A program made the position numbers and the translations under genes. A stretch of DNA of 64,000 nt from Paecilomyces variotii (Eukaryota), in assembly GCA_004022145.1 (NCBI GenBank), contig RCNU01000007.1; one strand, given 5' to 3'. Under the pieces are notes generated by a model. That model did not search any database. It saw only the letters and a program-made list of their open reading frames with translations, and was not told the origin of the DNA. Positions 1,938-12,739 of this stretch are shown here, piece after piece (the first letter of the stretch is position 1; each line of letters opens with the position of its first letter).

Positions 1938-3206
1938 ATGACAACTACGATCAAATACATCTTGCCCCTGATTTTCTTCTTGGGAGTCTACACCGTATTC
2001 ATCTTCTCCTCTCGCAATGGTCTATTTACTCTCCTCGACGATGCCATCTACTCGAGGACGATGCCCGGTGGAGACGGCCCCATCAAGACAAATCTCACTG
2101 GTATCAAAGCTCTCGATGAGGGTCTGTTGATTCACCTAAATGCATTCTTCTTGCGTGTGGTCGATGGAAGCGCTCCTGATCTATCCCTCTATGCCTTTTC
2201 ATCCACAGGCTCCTTTGGCGCAGCTTGGATTTTGATCACGGTGGAAGCATGGAGGAAGGGAAATGCCGGGACACTTATGGCATCGTATGTTTCCCGACCT
2301 GTCCTCACTTATTATATCATAGCACTGCATGTTCTGAATCAGAATCAGACGAGAAATGTCCGTAAGCGAACAACAAGCTGACTCTCAGATCCCAGTGTAT
2401 TCGGCGTCGGCTTCTTGGCCCAAACAATCACATACGCCTTATCCATGACGATTTACTGCATGCTAAACCTCTGGAAATCACGGACAATTTCCAACCTCAC
2501 TCTTCAAAAGATCATTACTCCTCGAATAATCTCAAATACGCTACCATTAGCCCTATTCATAGGCTACTTTATCCCAACAGCCCTCCTCGCCGCACCTACT
2601 GCCATCTTCAATATGGATACGAAGCAGTCCTTCCTCGCAGCATGGCAACTCTGGCCACTAACTGTTTCGTTCCTCCTATCCCTTACCAAATATTTCTCTC
2701 CACGATGTACTCGACCAGACAACATCCATGACCGCCGCGCTGATATCCTTTCTCTACGATACCTTTACGCTTTCGCATTCGCATGCGCTGCCATCCCTCA
2801 CCTTGGAACCTGGTTGATCTCTCTGACATCGGTGATCTATCCCGGATTATTCAATGCAGAATACCTCGAGAAACTGCATCCGCAGCGGGTATTCATTAAC
2901 AAGATCCCGTTGGACTCCGTGCGCGTCTCTTCCGTGGAAGAGGGTAGTCTCTGGTTCTTGCAGTGGGATAATACCATTGGGTCAATCAGTGTCATGTTAT
3001 GGGCAGTGGCGCTGTATCGTAAGGCTTGTGCGGAGGCAAAGGTTAGGGTGAGTGCGGTTGAATTGGGGGTTAAGATCTGTTTACTGGTGATTTTGGGGGG
3101 AGCGGTCGGTGCAGCGGTGGAATTGGTGTGGGAGAGGGATGAATTAGTGTTCTCCAAGGAATTGGAAGTTGCAGTGGAGAAAGGTACTGGGGAAAATTCC
3201 CATTAG
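1938..3206 (+). CDS. Multi-pass membrane protein, AtmA/PaxA/CtvD-like (2 exons, intron ~2285-2395)
   Basis: Two hydrophobic ORFs (1938..2381, 2415..3206) are joined by a GTATGT...CAG intron. Motifs TGIKALD, VEAWRKGN, WQLWP, WFLQWD and terminal WERD resemble this fungal family, as recalled rather than searched. Confidence 0.7.
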
Positions 3207-3408
3207 TTGGATCTTTCCGGCGAGAAGCTCTACATCAGTTCAGACCCGGAGTCCTAGTCGGATGGCCAGGTTACAGCCGCGCGCGGACAGAAATACGGGA
3301 GGGAAATAAATGAACTGGACCTGCACCCGATTCCAAACATGCACGTGCGGTATGTACATAGTAAATGAAGAAAGACGGAAGGAAAGTACGTATACATGGG
3401 CCCACGCT

Positions 3409-4821: not shown

Positions 4822-7597
4822 ATGTCAAATCGCATACAGATCGACTCAGTCATTGATGACGATGATGAGTTCTGGTATGACAGAGCTCCCCGTCCGGTTG
4901 TGCTTGGCTTGTCGTGCTGACTTTTGTTCTCTAGCCCCCTCTGTATCGAAGAGTTCGATCTTTCGGATAAGAACTTCAAACCTTGTCCCTGTGGCTACCA
5001 GGTGTGTACCCGGATTCCCCGCAACGCTGTGGCGAGCCCTTCCAGCCTTCCTATCCCAGAGACTTTCTATGCAAAACAGTGATCTGACTTGACGCGATAC
5101 AGATATGTCAGTTCTGTTACAACAATATCAAGACCCACAGTGAAGAGGGTCGATGTCCGAATTGTAGACGGGTGTACGATGAAAGTACCATACAGTATAA
5201 GGTCCCTGATGTGGATGAGTAAGTGGCCTACGTGCTTTACGTTGACACTGCAAAACATCAGCGTTAACCTTGATGCATCGCACAGATTCAAAGCGGATTT
5301 GGCACTGAAGCACCGCAAAGCTGCTGCTGCGAAGAAGAAAGAGGCCGAAAAACGCGAGATCGAGGCATCCAGCCGGAAAAATCTTGCTGGTGTCCGAGTG
5401 GTCCAAAAGAACCTGGTCTACGTGATTGGCCTGAACCCCACCATACGTGACGAGAACCAGTTACTGCAGACGCTTCGAGGTCCCGAATACTTCGGCCAGT
5501 ACGGAGATATCGAAAAGATCGTGGTCAGCAAGGCTAAACCAGGCGGGAATCCGAACCAGGGTATCGGCGTTTATGTTACCTTCCTTAGAAAGGCGGACGC
5601 GGCGACCTGTATCGCAGCTGTAGATGGGTCTGTCAATGGCGATCGGGTTCTGAGGTGGGTCCAATAGTGCCTTTTCGTACTATGGCATCAGACTAATTAC
5701 TTCTATCAGGGCGCAATACGGTACGACGAAATATTGCTCCTCATTCCTTCGTAACGAGCAATGTAACAACCGGAATTGTACTTTCCTGCACGAGACTGGG
5801 GAAGATACCGACAGCTTCAGCCGACAGGACCTCTCGTCCATGAACATGCGACAAGGGTATACCAACGGTGCGGCCGGTCCAAGTCAACAACATCATCCGG
5901 CTCAGATGCGACCATCCGCGCAACCTCTCCAGTCATCCCAACCGATGCGTCGCCAAGGAAGTAAGGATGATGGTATATCGCGGTCGGGCACCAACGACGG
6001 GTCGGCTCTCCCCTCATCTGCTAGCTGGGCGAACAAGGATGCGCCTGTGAACCGTGCGAGGCGCGCCAGTTTAACTGGGAGCCGATCCTCTCCAAGCCCC
6101 AAACCCACGAGTGCTGTTATCGCGACCAAGGCAGATGAATCAAAGAAACAGGCCGGGTCTTCGCAAGATGCTGCTTCGCGTCGCGGCACGCCTGCTCCTG
6201 CGAATGCCCAACCCGTGTCGCAAAGCCAACCTCGCGCAGCACAACCGCCACCACGGCCCGAGAATCCTCTCTTGGACGAGTTAGTGAAGGCCATCAATTC
6301 GTCCGACTTCAAGTTCGTCTTTTCTGCTGCTGGGTTACCGGCAGAGGAAGCTGCTTTCATCGAGAATCATCCTTCCTTCATTGATCCGTACGGCGGAGTG
6401 AAGCGCAGGGCCATGCGGGAAAAGGCGGAGCAGGAACGCGCAAAGCAAGAGGTTGAGACGCAGCAGTTTCTGCATTCCGCCGCTCAATCTGCCGCTGCTG
6501 AAGAGGAGACTAGGGAAAGTGGTAGCTTGCAGTTAGGTGGTGAGCCCGATGATGTCCATCCTCCCGCCCGCGGGGATCGTGGCCGTGAATCTCATGGCGC
6601 CATCCAACCTCCTTCCCAGCAAGGAACTGCGACAAACTCGGTTATTGGTTCTCCTGTGTCTGCCGCTAGTCATCAATTCCAGAGTCTGAACGTCGGAGGC
6701 CGGAGTTTGACTCCTCTGCAGCAGCAGCAATTAATGTTGCTGAAGTCCGCTAACGGCCAGCAGGCTGGTCTGATGGATCCGCTGCAGACGGGCTTCGGTT
6801 CAACCGGCTTTGATCATGCGTCTCAGGCTCGTCAGGGCCTTTTCCAGAATCAGATGCCTCAGTTGAGTGGCATGCAAGGTCATAACCGACAATCCTCTCG
6901 ATTCTCCTTCGCAAATGATAGCAATGCCAAGAACAACCCTAGCGCCAGGCTCATGAGCCAGCAAGCGTCTCTGATGCAGTCAGGAACACCAAATCCTCTG
7001 GCGGCTCCTACGCCCCAGCATAGCCTCGCGAGCCACTTCTATACCAGTGGTGTCCAGGGCCCTCCCCCAGGTTTGAAGACAGCCGGCACTCCTCCAATTA
7101 GCGGAGGCGGAATGTTTGCACAGGGCCATGGCTTCACCGCCAACGCGAACCTTGGCTTGGGAGCAAACCTTGGTAAGCAAGATGCCAATCCGGAGCTGAT
7201 GCGGGAACTTCTCCGTGGTCGCGGTGGCGCAGGTGGTTTGCAAGCGCACGAAGTTGCTAAGCGTGAGTTCATGTTTCCTTTCCTCCAGCAACACCAGACA
7301 CCCCCTCCCCTGACTCCCGCTACTACTGGCCTTCTCAGCTCTTTCTATGGTTCCCAGGCGGGGACATACCCCGAACAGGGGCCACAGAAGCAGAAGAAGA
7401 AGGGGAAGAAGCACAGACACGCTAACACTTCCTCCGGTGGAGGTGGTGTAGTCGATCTTGCGGACCCGAGTATCTTGCAGGCGAGAATGCATCAAGTTGG
7501 TGCCAACACTGCTGCTGGGCAAGCCCTGTACGGGAGTCAGGGTCAAGGTGGGTACAATCACTCCATGATGTATGGAGCTGGTTTTAACCGCTGGTGA
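4822..7597 (+). CDS. NOT4: CCR4-NOT E3 ligase Not4, short isoform (introns 4875-4934, 5002-5102, 5219-5285, 5655-5709)
   Basis: C4C4 RING (CPLCIEEFD...FKPCPCGYQICQFCY...CPNCRR), RRM (VRVVQKNLVYVIGL), CCCH (YGTTKYCSSFLRNEQCNNRNCTFLHE) and later SRFSF, PPPG and DPSIL motifs. The frame is open to TGA at 7595-7597. Confidence 0.92.
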
Positions 7598-8344
7598 TTT
7601 CATCTTCACCCATCCTACTCCCTTCTGTTATGATAGTTCCCTCCCCTTGTTGTGTTGACCGCGTTCAATGTTGTGTTTCTTTCTTTCTTTTTCTTTCTTT
7701 TTTTCTCTACCCAATTCCCATGAATGATATGCTCCCCTCATGTGGGCACGGCCGTGACCTTTCTGTACGCTTTCTTGGAACTCATGTTTGTCGATTTCAC
7801 TTTTGAAGCGAAGCATCAGGCAGACGGCTCCCAAAAGAAGATAATGGGCTGGGCGTGCCTTTGGCGTTTATTATGGATTGTTTTGCGCATTACGGGCAAT
7901 GTTGGATGGGAGGCGTCGTCACATTTTGCGGAGATCTAATGTCTTCTGGGTTTCCTTACATATTTGGCGGACGCCGTATTGTTGCATCCGGCCCTGCTTC
8001 ATTTACAGCATTTGGGCGACCTCTGGTCGACCGGTTCATGGCTCATGTACGTTAACCTCCCCGCCCTGTCTTGTACCCAAGCGGGGTCATATGCCGAAAG
8101 CAAATTCTCACATTTAATGTTCATATAGACATTTGGCCTGCCCATCCTGCCTGGTCAAAGCTCTTTTTGTAATTGCCATTATGCCTATACCTTATCGTAT
8201 TGCCTGGTCGCCTCGTCTGTATGCTTCGTTGCGATTATCTGTTGCTCTTGCTTTCTTTTCAGATTATTTCGGATCCGCTGCAATTCGCTCATTCACTTCA
8301 CCCACATCGCTTTTCTTCGGGAGATTGCTAACTGCTCTCCACAG

Positions 8345-10617
8345 TCGATGACGAATTCCCACCGCTGGATGTATCCGCCAAGGACAGACCGTCCGTCGAC
8401 AGTTTTGGCTTCCCATTCCGGCCGCATCTTGCTGACGATTCTCGCGCATCGTCGATTCGTTCGGGGACCCCGACGCTCCCTCCCGGCCTGCCTCTGCCGC
8501 ATGCACATCCCGCCGCTGCTTTCCTTCAGGAGTTGGACCCGTCGAGTCCCGTACGTTCGCCGTCAATTCCCCCCGGATTTGCTCCTGTTGCCCCCTGGCT
8601 GGGCACACCTGCGCAGAAACTGCAGGAGAACAACTCTAGACATGCTACGCCTGAACCTAGGGCGGCCCCTGACATTGCTCAGGTGACTGACAGGGTCAAG
8701 AATGCATCGGAAATCTCCCTTGGCTCCCCTAAACCGAAGCCCGCCAAAGCTCGCGGTCAATCTAAGGCAGAGAGCCTCAGCGTCTCTGACAAGAAGGAAG
8801 ATACCGCGGCTACCACGGGTACTCCCCAGCGCAGTGAGCGCGAGTCGAGTGCGAAGCCAAAGCCGATCAAGCTTAATTTATCGACTTTCACGGCTTCCCA
8901 CCCCCAAGATAATTCCCCTGGCAAGTCGGATACACCAAGCCAGGTCATCGCTGGTGCTACTGCGTCAGTGGCTGGCTCCCGCCCTAACACTCCTCTTACT
9001 GGCATTTCTCGCGCTTCGGACTCCTCCGGCCCACGTCAAACTCGGGTACTTCGGGTCGTAGATACTCCAAAGGCAGAGACACCCCCTCCTGTTTCAGCTA
9101 CACAATCAATCTCTTCTGCCCAAGCCGTGAAGGGCCGCTCCAGAAGACTGAGTATTTCTTCGGTCAGCAGGCCCGAGACTCCTGGTGAAGTCGGTTCCGA
9201 CTACGATCCGTACACATCGGCATCTGTGTCTCGGGCAAACTCCCCTCCGCCCTCCAAGATCGGTTCGGCGCCAGTGCGTGCGATCACGAAGAGTCAGGCG
9301 AAAAAGGAAAGAAGATTGAAGGCGAAACAGGCGGAGGCCAAAGAGGCTATCTCAACCACTGTTGTGGAGGAGCCAGTACAGGCTCCGATCATCGGCAGGA
9401 AAAGGAAGACCAAGAAGACGCCTTCGAGCAATGAGCCCTCTAGCACGACAGAAACAGCAACTAGAGCTGCCTCGGAGGCCAGCAGGTCTCCTGAGAAAGC
9501 TATTGAAGACCGAGGAGAGCAGAAGTCCGCCGACGCTGGTAAAAAGTCAAAATCCAAGGACAAGTCTACGAAGGATGTCCAACCTGCTACTTCTCCTGAG
9601 AAGGAAGCCAGCGAGAGTGGCGAGAGAGAAGCTACGGAGACATGGCGTGAAAACAATACGATCGAGCAGATGATAAAGGACTCTGAAGCTAAGGGTATCC
9701 CGATAAAGGAGCTCTTCCTGGAGAGGACGTCTCCACTCCCAGTTCTCCTTGCTCAACTGCATCAGTCTGGGCTGCTCGATCTCAACAACCATCCCCTGTT
9801 TAATCCTCCCAATCTCAGCCAGCGTTCGGATATGAAGTGTTCGTCGGAAGATTACGAGTCTCTGAAGCAGCCTATTGAGTTAACGGAAGAGGACAGAAAG
9901 AAGCTTCTCCGTGGAGAACCCGTTCGCATCAACGGCGACTCGGCGCTCCTAAAAAGCAGATGCCTCATCACTCCGAGCGGATGCATCCTTCGTCACCTAT
10001 CTCCGGACGAAGAGGATCGTTACCTTGCGCTGGAGAAGAGCTTGTCGCTGTCTGCTGATTCAATGCAGGAGTATCCCGCACTTTCAATTACTGACCCGGA
10101 CATCACAAACCGCGGTGGTGGTCTCGACGCTCTCTTCGCCACCCCCGAGAGGTATAACATCGTCTGGGTTGATGAGACCCCAGGGGCTGGCATTTCGGGA
10201 GCGAGTGACGCCGGTGTTGGCGCAGGTGCTGCGGATTCTACGCCTCCTACAGTCGCTTCTGCGCCTCCTAATGTCCTCTCCGCCATGGAGGCTGACACCA
10301 CTCGAAGCCACAACTGGGCTATCGCGAACACGGCCGAACTTGTCAACGCAACGGCTGCTTCGGTCCGCTCCTTCGCTGCCGCGACTGCGAAACATATGCT
10401 TGGCGTGACTGGCATCGCCATGGGTGATATTCCGGATCTCGAGGACGTCATGGGCATGTCCGACGATGAGCTGCGTACGTTCATCGAGCGCTCCCAGCGC
10501 GAATTAGAGTCTTCTCGGAAGGATGTTGATTCCATTGACAAGAAGCTGATGGCGCTGATCAAGCGCAACAAGAAGCTTGCACAGCAGGCAATTGCGGCGA
10601 CTGTTGAGGCGTCGTAA
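8345..10617 (+). CDS. NOT4: Large 3' exon of the long NOT4 isoform (less likely a separate gene)
   Basis: CTAAC branch (~8328) and ACAG acceptor (8341-8344). The frame runs open from 8345 (DDEFPPL...) through the 694-aa ORF 8533..10617, which has no ATG start. Its phase matches donors at 7548 and 7263. Confidence 0.78.
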
Positions 10618-11030
10618 GCAGCTTCTGCTTGGGGCCATATTGTACTACCAAGACACTATCAAGGCGTTTCGAACATGGAACTGGAACGTGACGGAGCTAG
10701 ATGGAATTGCATGGGATGGAACGGAAATGGGTAATTCTAATGTGCATGCCCTCCCGGGTTACGGATGCTTGTTTCTCTGTTTGTTCCGAGTTGACGGATG
10801 TTAGCGTTTTCTCTGTTGTCAGTGTAGATTAACTTTCGGTTCTTTCCATTGTATTGAGTATTACTTTACTTGCATTGCATTGCATTTCGTTACATGATTG
10901 AGCAAGGATAATGCCTTACAAAAAAGAAATACCCATCACTTAATGGCCGTTATTCCTCTCCAAGATGCAAATAGATATTGTTCTTTGCAAGGCATTGTAT
11001 CTCGCATAAGTAGGTTGTAAACGATGTATG

Positions 11031-11047
11031 TATATATATATATATAT
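11031..11047. repeat. (TA)n microsatellite between the convergent NOT4 and BCKDH 3' ends
   Basis: Direct reading. Confidence 0.85.
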
Positions 11048-11096
11048 GTGCATGACGAAAGGGTACCGAAGGAGACGCTCCCTTCTTGGACAATAT

Positions 11097-12739
11097 TTAA
11101 AGTCCCTTAATCCCATCTTGGAATTCCCTTAGGTCATACTCCTCTGGATACGTCTCCAAGATACGCTTCAGCTCCTTCATCTGTTCTTGCGCCTCTTCTG
11201 TCAATTCCTCATAAACGTCCGTAAAGGCCTCTCTAAGGGGAGGCTTCTTCTCCCTCTCAGCAGCGCTGAATTCCTTGAGTACCGTTCGACGGATCTCATC
11301 CCGCGTGTCGCGTTCCAGGTCCTCGTTCCAGAGGCCTTTGTTTTCAAGCCACTTCCGTAGCCGAATGATCGGGTTATCGCGCCGTTTCCAGTCCTCGACT
11401 TCGACGCGCGCACGGTATGCAAAGCTATCGTCGCTGGTGCTGTGGTGGGAAACGCGGTAGCTCATTGCTTCGATGAGGATGGGTCGGCCGCCATCGGAGA
11501 GGGCCATGCGGCGTGCTTCTTTGGTTACTTCGCGTACAGCGAAGATGTCGTTGCCATCGACGCGGATGGTGTCGATTCCGTAGCCGATTCCACGGCTAGC
11601 GATGCCGTCGCCGCGGTACTGCTCTAGTGTCGGGGTGGAGATGGCGTAACCGTTGTTGCGGCAGATGAAGACTACAGGACAGGATCTTGTAGCAGCGATG
11701 TTCAGTGCGGCGTGGAAGTCGCCCTCGCTCGCTGCGCCTTCACCGAAATAACAAGCGACGATGCGCGGTGGAGTGTTTGGATTCTGGAGATGTTGGAGCT
11801 TCAGGGCGTATGCGGCACCTGCGGCTTGGGGGATTTGAGTTGACAGTGGTGAGGATATTGTGTACTTAGTTGGACATATATGATTAGAATTGGCTGTGGT
11901 GGTGGTCATATCTTTAGGGGGGGAGGGGCATGGATTTGATTTACCTGTTTCGGATATGAGCGTCCATAATGTACCGGCATATTACGCCCTTTGCCGGCAT
12001 CGTTCTTGTTGGAAAACAGCTGGCTCATGAATTCTTGCAAAGTGAATCCACGTTGCTGGAGAACGCCGGCTTCTCGATACTGTGCGAACACCACGTCGTC
12101 TGGAGAGAGCGCCGTTGCGGAACCCACGGCGATTCCTTCCTCGCCTGCAGAGACCTAAGGAGAGGTGAGATGATCAGCGGAAAGCTTCCATACGTAGCGC
12201 ACAGTACGCACCATATAAAAGCTCAATCGGCCTTGTCTCTGGGCTTCGAACATGATCAGGTCCATTATATTAACTGCGTCGCTTGGATCAGTAGTGGTCC
12301 CATCACTGGTAGATACGGCAGGAAGACGAACCCGTCAACATGTTCTTATACCAAGATATGACCTCCTCATCTGAGACGTCTGTTGGAGCGTGGTTTTGAT
12401 CCACGATGGTTCCGTCCGAGTCCATCACTCGATACGTAGGCATAGCGGGCATATTCGATGGTCGTGAGAAGGACATTTCCGTGGTGAATTTACTGTCGAC
12501 TGCGCCAGGGAATCGAACACTGAGCGAGCGCCGCAAAATCCGAATCAGATGTGATTCTCGAAAAAACATGTTCACAGAGGTCTGGCGAGATCGACTTACT
12601 GGTCCGACCCAGGTCTCTGAGAGATAGAATTGCTCCATCGTACTGCAGTCCGCGGGGCTATCAAGGGAGTAGTAGTAAAGACCTTCCGGCCGGAGGTGGA
12701 TATGGATAAACCGCTCCTTCGAAACAGTGAAGACGCCAT
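11097..12739 (-). CDS. BCKDHA: Branched-chain 2-oxo acid dehydrogenase E1 alpha subunit, mitochondrial (5 exons)
   Basis: [29 protein letters not shown]-binding [11 protein letters not shown]...NN and SHHSTSDD motifs. Presequence [10 protein letters not shown]. Confidence 0.95.

Follow-up and report, generated by a model that had tools for sequence, protein, structure and literature searches.

A splicing switch in the NOT4 gene of Paecilomyces variotii is supported by RNA and conserved across several Pezizomycotina classes

Why do databases list Not4, a core ligase of mRNA decay and ribosome quality control, from filamentous ascomycetes as a protein of about 830, 1460 or 1560 amino acids, or as the product of two genes? 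The question was addressed in Paecilomyces variotii on a 64,000-nt stretch of contig RCNU01000007.1 (GenBank assembly GCA_004022145.1; hereafter the window), whose plus strand carries NOT4 between positions 4822 and 10617. The gene encodes a C4C4 RING followed by an RRM, as expected of Not4/CNOT4, and the C-terminal 189 residues of its exon 5 are 100% identical to an annotated protein. The divergent database entries follow from a splice switch at the 3′ end of the gene, which is supported by RNA and conserved across several Pezizomycotina classes. We consider it probable that this is an old, selected 3′ processing switch of filamentous ascomycete NOT4. Deeply conserved alternative splicing that changes the protein has few worked examples in fungi.

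Alternative ends of NOT4 in RNA

The portion of exon 5 common to all forms spans 5710–7262 according to the gene model and RNA contigs. Left unspliced, the frame runs on to a stop at 7597 and ends ...GGYNHSMMYGAGFNRW* (830 residues), as a sequence-only reading of this locus had noted. That reading had also pointed to two phase-1 donors, C|GTGAGT at 7263 (D1) and AG|GTGGGT at 7548 (D2, the same hexamer as at 5655), either of which would fit a CTAAC...CAG acceptor at 8344 (A2) to give the junctions AK-L-DDEFPPL and GQ-V-DDEFPPL, respectively, and had named 7262^8345 and 7547^8345 as the joints to look for. Phases and fit hold, and both joints are present in RNA-type contigs. The RNA evidence consists of Logan contigs from 4 of 22 listed runs (X1, X3, X7 and X14). 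The RNA type of X1 and X3, which belong to two studies, was guessed, but all four constitutive introns have been removed from their contigs, whereas X7 contains no spliced intron and no joint and serves as a DNA-like control. Junction 7262^8345 (D1–A2) occurs in X1 and X3, hence in two of the four runs and in both studies, and 7547^8345 (D2–A2) in X14 only, in a single contig of depth 12 with 21 nt on its short side. A third junction, 7262^7452 (D1–A1), is found in X3 and X14 and takes out 189 nt in frame. Its acceptor, the TAG ending at 7451 with a branch point of its own, had escaped the sequence-only reading, as had the conserved element at 8046 described below. Unspliced sequence is also present in RNA contigs of X1 (7233–8300) and X3 (7233–7481).

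Because 7263–7451 is itself an exitron, at least four forms exist in RNA and five are possible, not the two or three first envisaged. The short forms have 830 residues with the exitron kept and 767 with it removed. The long form from D1 to A2 has 1476 residues, and that from D2 to A2 has 1571 with the exitron and 1508 without. Two of these five models are letter-identical to database proteins (P0498 and P0506). An alternative intron of about 800 bp, as originally proposed, does exist in the form of 7547^8345, but the long junction seen most often removes 1082 nt from 7263. Both long junctions splice past the inner terminal segment, which makes the distal exon an alternative last exon. Contig cover of the large intron stops at 7991, 8109 and 8300 in three studies and continues to 8337 in the DNA-like run. 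Assembled contigs cannot fix a 3′ end or an isoform ratio, and they drop rare forms; nevertheless, we strongly infer that the short mRNA, with its poly(A) site, ends inside the last intron, such that 7598–8300 is the 3′ untranslated region (UTR) of the short forms and an intron of the long ones. The proposal of alternative splicing combined with an intronic 3′ end is thus borne out by the RNA contigs, together with the conserved donors, RW* tail and distal exon.

Many annotations split the locus into two genes (830 plus 768 residues in P. variotii strains), and a profile of the distal region usually retrieves the distal open frame by itself, as would be expected if 8345–10617 were a separate gene with its own promoter. 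The contigs, however, link 8345 to 7262 or 7547 and give no hint that the distal exon has a promoter; in X3 the stretch 8110–8344 is uncovered, and the start exons predicted in the split models vary between strains and genera. We regard a separate gene, which the sequence-only reading had left as a way to be wrong, as hardly credible. A further phase-1 donor-like site, G|GTAAGC at 7173, is compatible with A2 (1446 residues); no junction from it appears in the RNA contigs.

Conservation of the splice sites

A metagenome scan returned 80 loci, 81 with the window, and removal of one locus without the tail and of 26 duplicates left 54. By best match to named proteins, 14 of these are Sordariomycete-like, 11 Leotiomycete-like, 5 Dothideomycete-like and 11 Eurotiales/Onygenales-like (three at only about 47%), while the remaining 13 are nearest to one further protein. 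D1 (AAGC|GTGAGT, 7263–7268), which is used in X1, X3 and X14 and also codes for K-R-E, reads CGTGAGT in all 54 loci, and CGT makes up only 14% of upstream Arg codons. D2 (CAAG|GTGGGT, 7548–7553), which also codes for Q-G-G-Y, reads AAGGTGGGT in 52 of 54. The proximal branch point GCTAAC and an in-phase TAG at A1 (TAG|TC, 7449–7451) are each present in 53 of 54 loci. At the distal end (branch point CTAAC at 8328, CAG of A2, together 8328–8344), 43 of the 45 loci whose flank reaches 1000 nt or more have the open frame, and all 43 testable distal exons have a phase-1 acceptor with a branch point, against 4 and 3 for the other phases. The short-form tail (7548–7597), delimited by homologue comparison, ends in RW in 100 of the 120 short homologues listed and has a terminal or near-terminal W in 119, so that the conservation of tail and donors called for by the sequence-only reading is found. 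Intron-free metagenome contigs from other classes (L051, L064 and L076) likewise retain the exitron and the RW* tail.

Synonymous codon identity, computed on 14 loci less than 62% identical and with a quick tree serving for breadth only, reaches 1.0 at D1, 0.90 at D2, 0.88 for the Lys tract and 0.73 across 7403–7468; the values upstream and in GPPPGLK, a block of equal conservation, are 0.36 and 0.38. The splice signals are therefore selected as RNA. That only one form matters and the others are splicing and cleavage noise would suit the single low-depth contig that joins D2 to A2; however, the synonymous sites of two competing donors and of two acceptors are fixed among these divergent lineages, and the minor junctions recur in the annotations of other species. 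The noise explanation thus appears largely refuted by synonymous-site conservation, and we consider it very improbable.

The 106 annotated long proteins of Eurotiomycetes, which are gene models and no independent RNA evidence, comprise 52 that use D2 with the exitron kept, 16 of the D1–A2 type, 10 with both splices and 28 that are other or unclear. The annotation of Coccidioides immitis RS contains variants of 1494, 833 and 771 residues, corresponding to three of the forms, and that of P. brasilianum variants of 1425 and 1457 residues. In the window, the identical five bases TCGAT directly follow both acceptors (7452–7456 and 8345–8349), so that D1 yields AK-L-D at either junction; this is not general in other classes.

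The exitron, its basic peptide and a predicted hairpin

The segment 7263–7451 (189 nt, 63 codons) is a stop-free, in-frame GT-AG intron within a coding exon. Contigs of X14 have it spliced out, those of X1 have it retained, and those of X3 show both states. In orthologues it is 183–204 nt long; every one of the 54 loci keeps its frame open and its length divisible by three. It encodes KQKKKGKKHRH (7388–7420), and a basic stretch is present in all 120 short homologues listed. This peptide is likely a nuclear import signal that would be added or removed with the exitron; however, since the exitron codons are constrained as RNA, conservation of the basic stretch is no proof of peptide function. 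The peptide KQKKKGKKHRHANT...DLADP could instead be a by-product of constraint on the RNA (AAG tract, branch point and hairpin) that holds no nuclear signal, with exitron retention a mere default path to the short or D2 forms. At 17 of 53 conserved columns a single codon is used in at least 95% of loci, compared with 0 of 67 upstream, as this would predict, yet the frame stays open in every locus, and L056, which lacks the usual acceptor, still codes for KKKKVNKHRHANT (one case). On balance, a by-product is possible but on the unlikely side. L056 (tail region, about 2931–3303) is the sole locus with GCCAAC as branch point and with no acceptor at the usual place; it retains D1, a D2-like site, an 8046-type element and a basic peptide, and is a possible natural loss of the exitron.

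The purine tract AAGCAGAAGAAGAAGGGGAAGAAG (7388–7412), in which Lys codons are almost always AAG, lies directly before the hairpin described below and partly outside its stem; it may be a splicing-factor site. Between A1 and D2, a 96-nt segment bounded by the RNA junctions (7452–7547) encodes DLADPSILQARMH...QGQ and is missing from the D1–A2 long form only. A literature search for its DPSIL (7463–7477) as a known motif found none.

RNAalifold, run on 36 of the 54 loci, predicts a single long stem at 7403–7468. Within it, GCUA of the branch point (GCUAAC, 7421–7426) is base-paired to UAGU of A1 and a single A is left unpaired; the top is formed by a stem of 10 pairs, and the exonic UCUUGC is the partner of GCA-c-AGA. 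When sequences were recoded synonymously with peptide, branch point and acceptor held fixed, the real sequence folded better (P≤0.05) in 39 of 54 loci (mean z −2.5), compared with 5 of 53 for a control block. Among 40 distinct hairpins most pairs are kept in 37–40 and one in 28, the changes being mainly A/G facing U. On these models, we strongly infer that the hairpin over A1 is a real RNA structure. The distance from branch point to AG is 26 nt at A1 and 10–18 nt in the other introns of the gene. The acceptor strand GTGTAGTC is similar to GTGTAGTA of the genome's own U2 snRNA, as any branch-point complement would be, and the stem would compete with U2 and thereby weaken A1. No Rfam covariance model matched 7000–8600 at E≤1. 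An RNA thermometer was rejected, the pairing being nearly constant from 20 to 55 °C. Binding of Not4 to its own RNA at GCACAGAC was also rejected: the motif was not found in a literature search, and the bases are explained by the lower stem.

The distal exon and what the long forms gain

The distal last exon (8345–10617, 757 residues), defined by RNA junctions and sequence analysis, begins with DDEFPPL (8347–8367; FPPL at 8356–8367) and also contains PPGL/PPGF and basic stretches. The PAM2 core consensus is L[NS]xxAxxFxP, and the earlier labelling of FPPL as PAM2-like was rejected because no such core occurs in exon 5 or in the distal exon. FPPL instead fits the FPxL sequence of a RACK1-interacting motif (RIM). 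Of the 49 shared exon-5 regions, 1 contains an acidic FPxL; the figures are 30 of 36 for distal exons and 102 of 106 for annotated long proteins. In the accessible texts, FPxL binds RACK1 in ZAK and SERBP1 (PMC12823453), and a preprint (bioRxiv 10.64898/2026.08.26.747346) adds RNF10, a predicted FPxL in human CNOT4 and a helix motif, S-aromatic-A-x. The portion of exon 5 common to all forms holds SWAN (6023–6034), which resembles this helix motif (RIH-like), as well as GPPPGL (7058–7075), and S-aromatic-A is present in 40 of 49 long exon-5 peptides. It is plausible that long forms dock on RACK1/CpcB at the ribosome through FPxL, judging by the motif and its distribution; RIMs bind blades 2–3 of RACK1. 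Looking for a full-length fungal RACK1 turned up other WD40 proteins.

Pfam gave no match above cut-off in exon 5 or the distal exon. A profile of the last 340 residues of the distal exon retrieved 425 clusters; the 10 long clusters looked up are ascomycete proteins wherever an organism is given, and 13 of 148 new matches to the distal region carry a Not4 N terminus. A 339-residue model (mean pLDDT 67, pTM 0.38) consists of a small alpha/beta part (about 9660–10110) and a 50-residue terminal helix (about 10460–10610), and both the folded domain and the terminal helix are conserved. With this model Foldseek found no match at E≤0.001, and VIA-align gave a best Z of 6.0 with generic matches to the terminal helix only. 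A PDB sequence search with the distal region gave a best E of 0.33, and the ESM Atlas returned only unnamed ascomycete clusters with scores of at most 0.85. These fold searches barely cover the small alpha/beta domain, whose single-sequence model is poor (pLDDT 47).

A conserved element in the short-form 3′ UTR

Within the short-form 3′ UTR, orthologue comparison revealed a non-coding element, TGTACGTTA (8046–8054), with the consensus cA-UGUAYGUWA. TGTAYGT occurs 261–647 nt past the short stop in 51 of 54 loci, against a background of 0.08 per 800 nt, and the three loci without it have only 19–271 nt of flank. All 51 elements contain the donor-like GTAYGT, which overlaps a UGUA/Puf4-type 9-mer; position 8 is U in 36 of 51 and position 9 is A in 49. 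GTAYGT is a fungal donor, but a donor has no need of the invariant T that precedes it here or of the A that follows; these bases suit the register UGUA-nnn-UA or a UGUA cleavage-factor site. The invariant G and U at positions 6–7 equally fit a 5′ splice site. In the part of PMC4654594 available, that register is the Puf4 9-mer of Pezizomycotina 3′ UTRs. The contigs of the four runs, which drop rare forms, contain no junction from 8046, 8046^8345 included. A donor, a Puf4 site or a 3′-end signal are all possible roles; a cassette exon or start codon at 8046 was rejected, as there is no conserved acceptor, frame or ATG. The element is followed by a predicted hairpin (about 8063–8091) with z<−1.5 in 12 of 24 non-redundant loci, compared with 0–2 in control windows. 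Elsewhere in this UTR, AGCG(A)AGCAT and repeated GGCGT words (7807–7816 and 7852–7917) recur in many orthologues; GGCGT is found in 22 of 24 non-redundant loci against 6.8 expected, and these words are possible protein-binding sites.

The main rival to a switch between proteins is dose control through 3′ UTRs, by which the switch would mainly set the amount of Not4 via the 3′ UTR and stability, the protein ends would matter little, and the 8046 element, as a Puf4 site or as a post-stop donor for decay-bound mRNA, would close a feedback loop. The retention of a non-coding element in the Puf4 register (PMC4654594) in 51 of 54 loci is what such control would predict, as is the far greater abundance, with nearly normal growth, of Aspergillus fumigatus Not4 truncated before D1. 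It does not sit well with the finding that every alternative form is in frame in every lineage, with the conserved folded domain and terminal helix of the distal exon, or with the lack of 8046^8345 in the contigs of the four runs. We judge dose control as the principal purpose to be improbable.

Proposed mechanism

The RNA contigs show NOT4 transcripts in which D1 or D2 is joined to the distal exon, giving long forms, and transcripts with the D1–A1 exitron either retained or spliced out; short forms with the RW* tail would arise where the pre-mRNA ends inside the last intron. We propose that the hairpin closes the branch point onto A1 and weakens it, so that retention, A1 and A2 compete for D1. 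Close to the inner 3′ end, the UGUAYGUWA element would help to decide between cleavage and splicing, or how stable the short mRNA is. Long forms would gain the acidic FPxL as a RACK1-docking motif, extra PPG-hydrophobic motifs and a folded C terminus ending in a coiled coil, and would act on ribosomes; short forms would lack these additions, and the exitron would add or remove KQKKKGKKHRH. This outcome, with long forms on ribosomes via RACK1 and the exitron toggling a peptide resembling a nuclear signal, is put forward tentatively, at somewhat less than even confidence. Its most elaborate version, in which the coding hairpin mimics the U2/branch-point helix and hides A1, the element is both donor and UGUA site, and a nuclear short Not4 and a RACK1-docked long Not4 with a novel C-terminal domain exist in all filamentous ascomycetes, probably under CCR4–NOT or Puf4 feedback, seems doubtful to us.

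Several observations weigh against the proposal. The RNA evidence comes from assembled contigs instead of reads, and splicing from D2 to A2 is known from one contig. Two-sided compensatory changes in the hairpin are almost absent, its 5′ arm is nearly invariant and the loci are related; the window hairpin reaches only z −1.14 against dinucleotide shuffles, and its predicted stability holds over the whole temperature range given above. Six of 36 distal exons have no acidic FPxL, and a non-acidic FPx(L/F) is present in 27 of 49 exon-5 peptides, including FPFL in the window's own exitron. Basic stretches occur in the distal exon too, so a split between nucleus and cytoplasm would not be clean. 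Finally, A. fumigatus Not4(1–693) grows almost normally, according to the accessible text of PMC7773993; residue 693 lies just before D1 (about residue 707 in an A. fumigatus protein) and thus upstream of all alternative parts, and this growth argues against any alternative end being essential in the laboratory.

The same text reports that truncated A. fumigatus Not4 proteins are much more abundant and altered in location. The rise in abundance on truncation before residue 707 gains a new reading here, because the cut lies upstream of every alternative site, and tagging at the annotated stop would presumably mark long forms only. A division of Not4 between nucleus and ribosome becomes testable, and the compact coding hairpin and 9-nt element offer sites at which mutation should shift isoform ratios.

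Comparison with known systems

The available text of PMC7773993 describes a long C terminus of A. fumigatus Not4 that is unique to filamentous fungi. P. variotii shares this part and the N-terminal RING and RRM, but the main text of that paper treats Not4 as a single protein and does not mention splicing, whereas in the gene analysed here that part is an alternative last exon, and an exitron and short forms exist besides. Among described cases, the alternative splicing of SKI7/HBS1 in fungi (PMC3597508) comes nearest; the accessible text of that paper does not mention NOT4. NOT4 differs in that it has an exitron and an inner 3′ end on top of two donors and two acceptors, and in that its C terminus is changed. 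As in the RIM proteins ZAK, SERBP1, LARP4 and RNF10 (accessible parts of PMC12823453 and bioRxiv 10.64898/2026.08.26.747346), the FPPL or FPAL of this ribosome-linked E3 ligase is located in disordered sequence, and the part shared by all forms carries the S-aromatic-A word; unlike in those proteins, the FPxL of NOT4 is a candidate RACK1 site that is switched on by splicing and missing from some distal exons.

Budding yeast has introns with a stem-loop located between the branch point and the 3′ splice site, and exitrons are found in plants and animals. Similarly, the predicted NOT4 structure bridges a long branch-to-AG distance, and the intron is in frame within coding sequence, but here the acceptor itself is predicted to pair with the branch point, and retention makes the whole stem coding. 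No description of NOT4 splicing in fungi was found in the open literature (subscription papers being outside its scope), nor anything on it in the accessible text of PMC5970261 and PMC9304896. The kind of event is thus known and some isoforms stand unremarked in annotations, while neither the layout as a whole nor the hairpin or the 8046 element seems to have been described.

Constitutive exons and surroundings

Exons 1–4 (4822–4874, 4935–5001, 5103–5218 and 5286–5654 in the gene model, plus strand) encode the RING and RRM. In the orthologue P0003 Pfam detects zf-RING_4 (E 6.7e-19) and, just under the cut-off, RRM_1 (E 7e-4). Intron 4 (5655–5709) is open in frame with exon 5 in L003, L004, L006 and many other loci, and may be absent or in-frame in many orthologous loci. 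Downstream of NOT4 lies a convergent minus-strand gene, presumably 2-oxoacid dehydrogenase E1-alpha-like. RNA contigs extend from the distal exon into it (10617–11300), which suggests that the two genes have overlapping 3′ UTRs, and a TA repeat is located at about 11018–11058.

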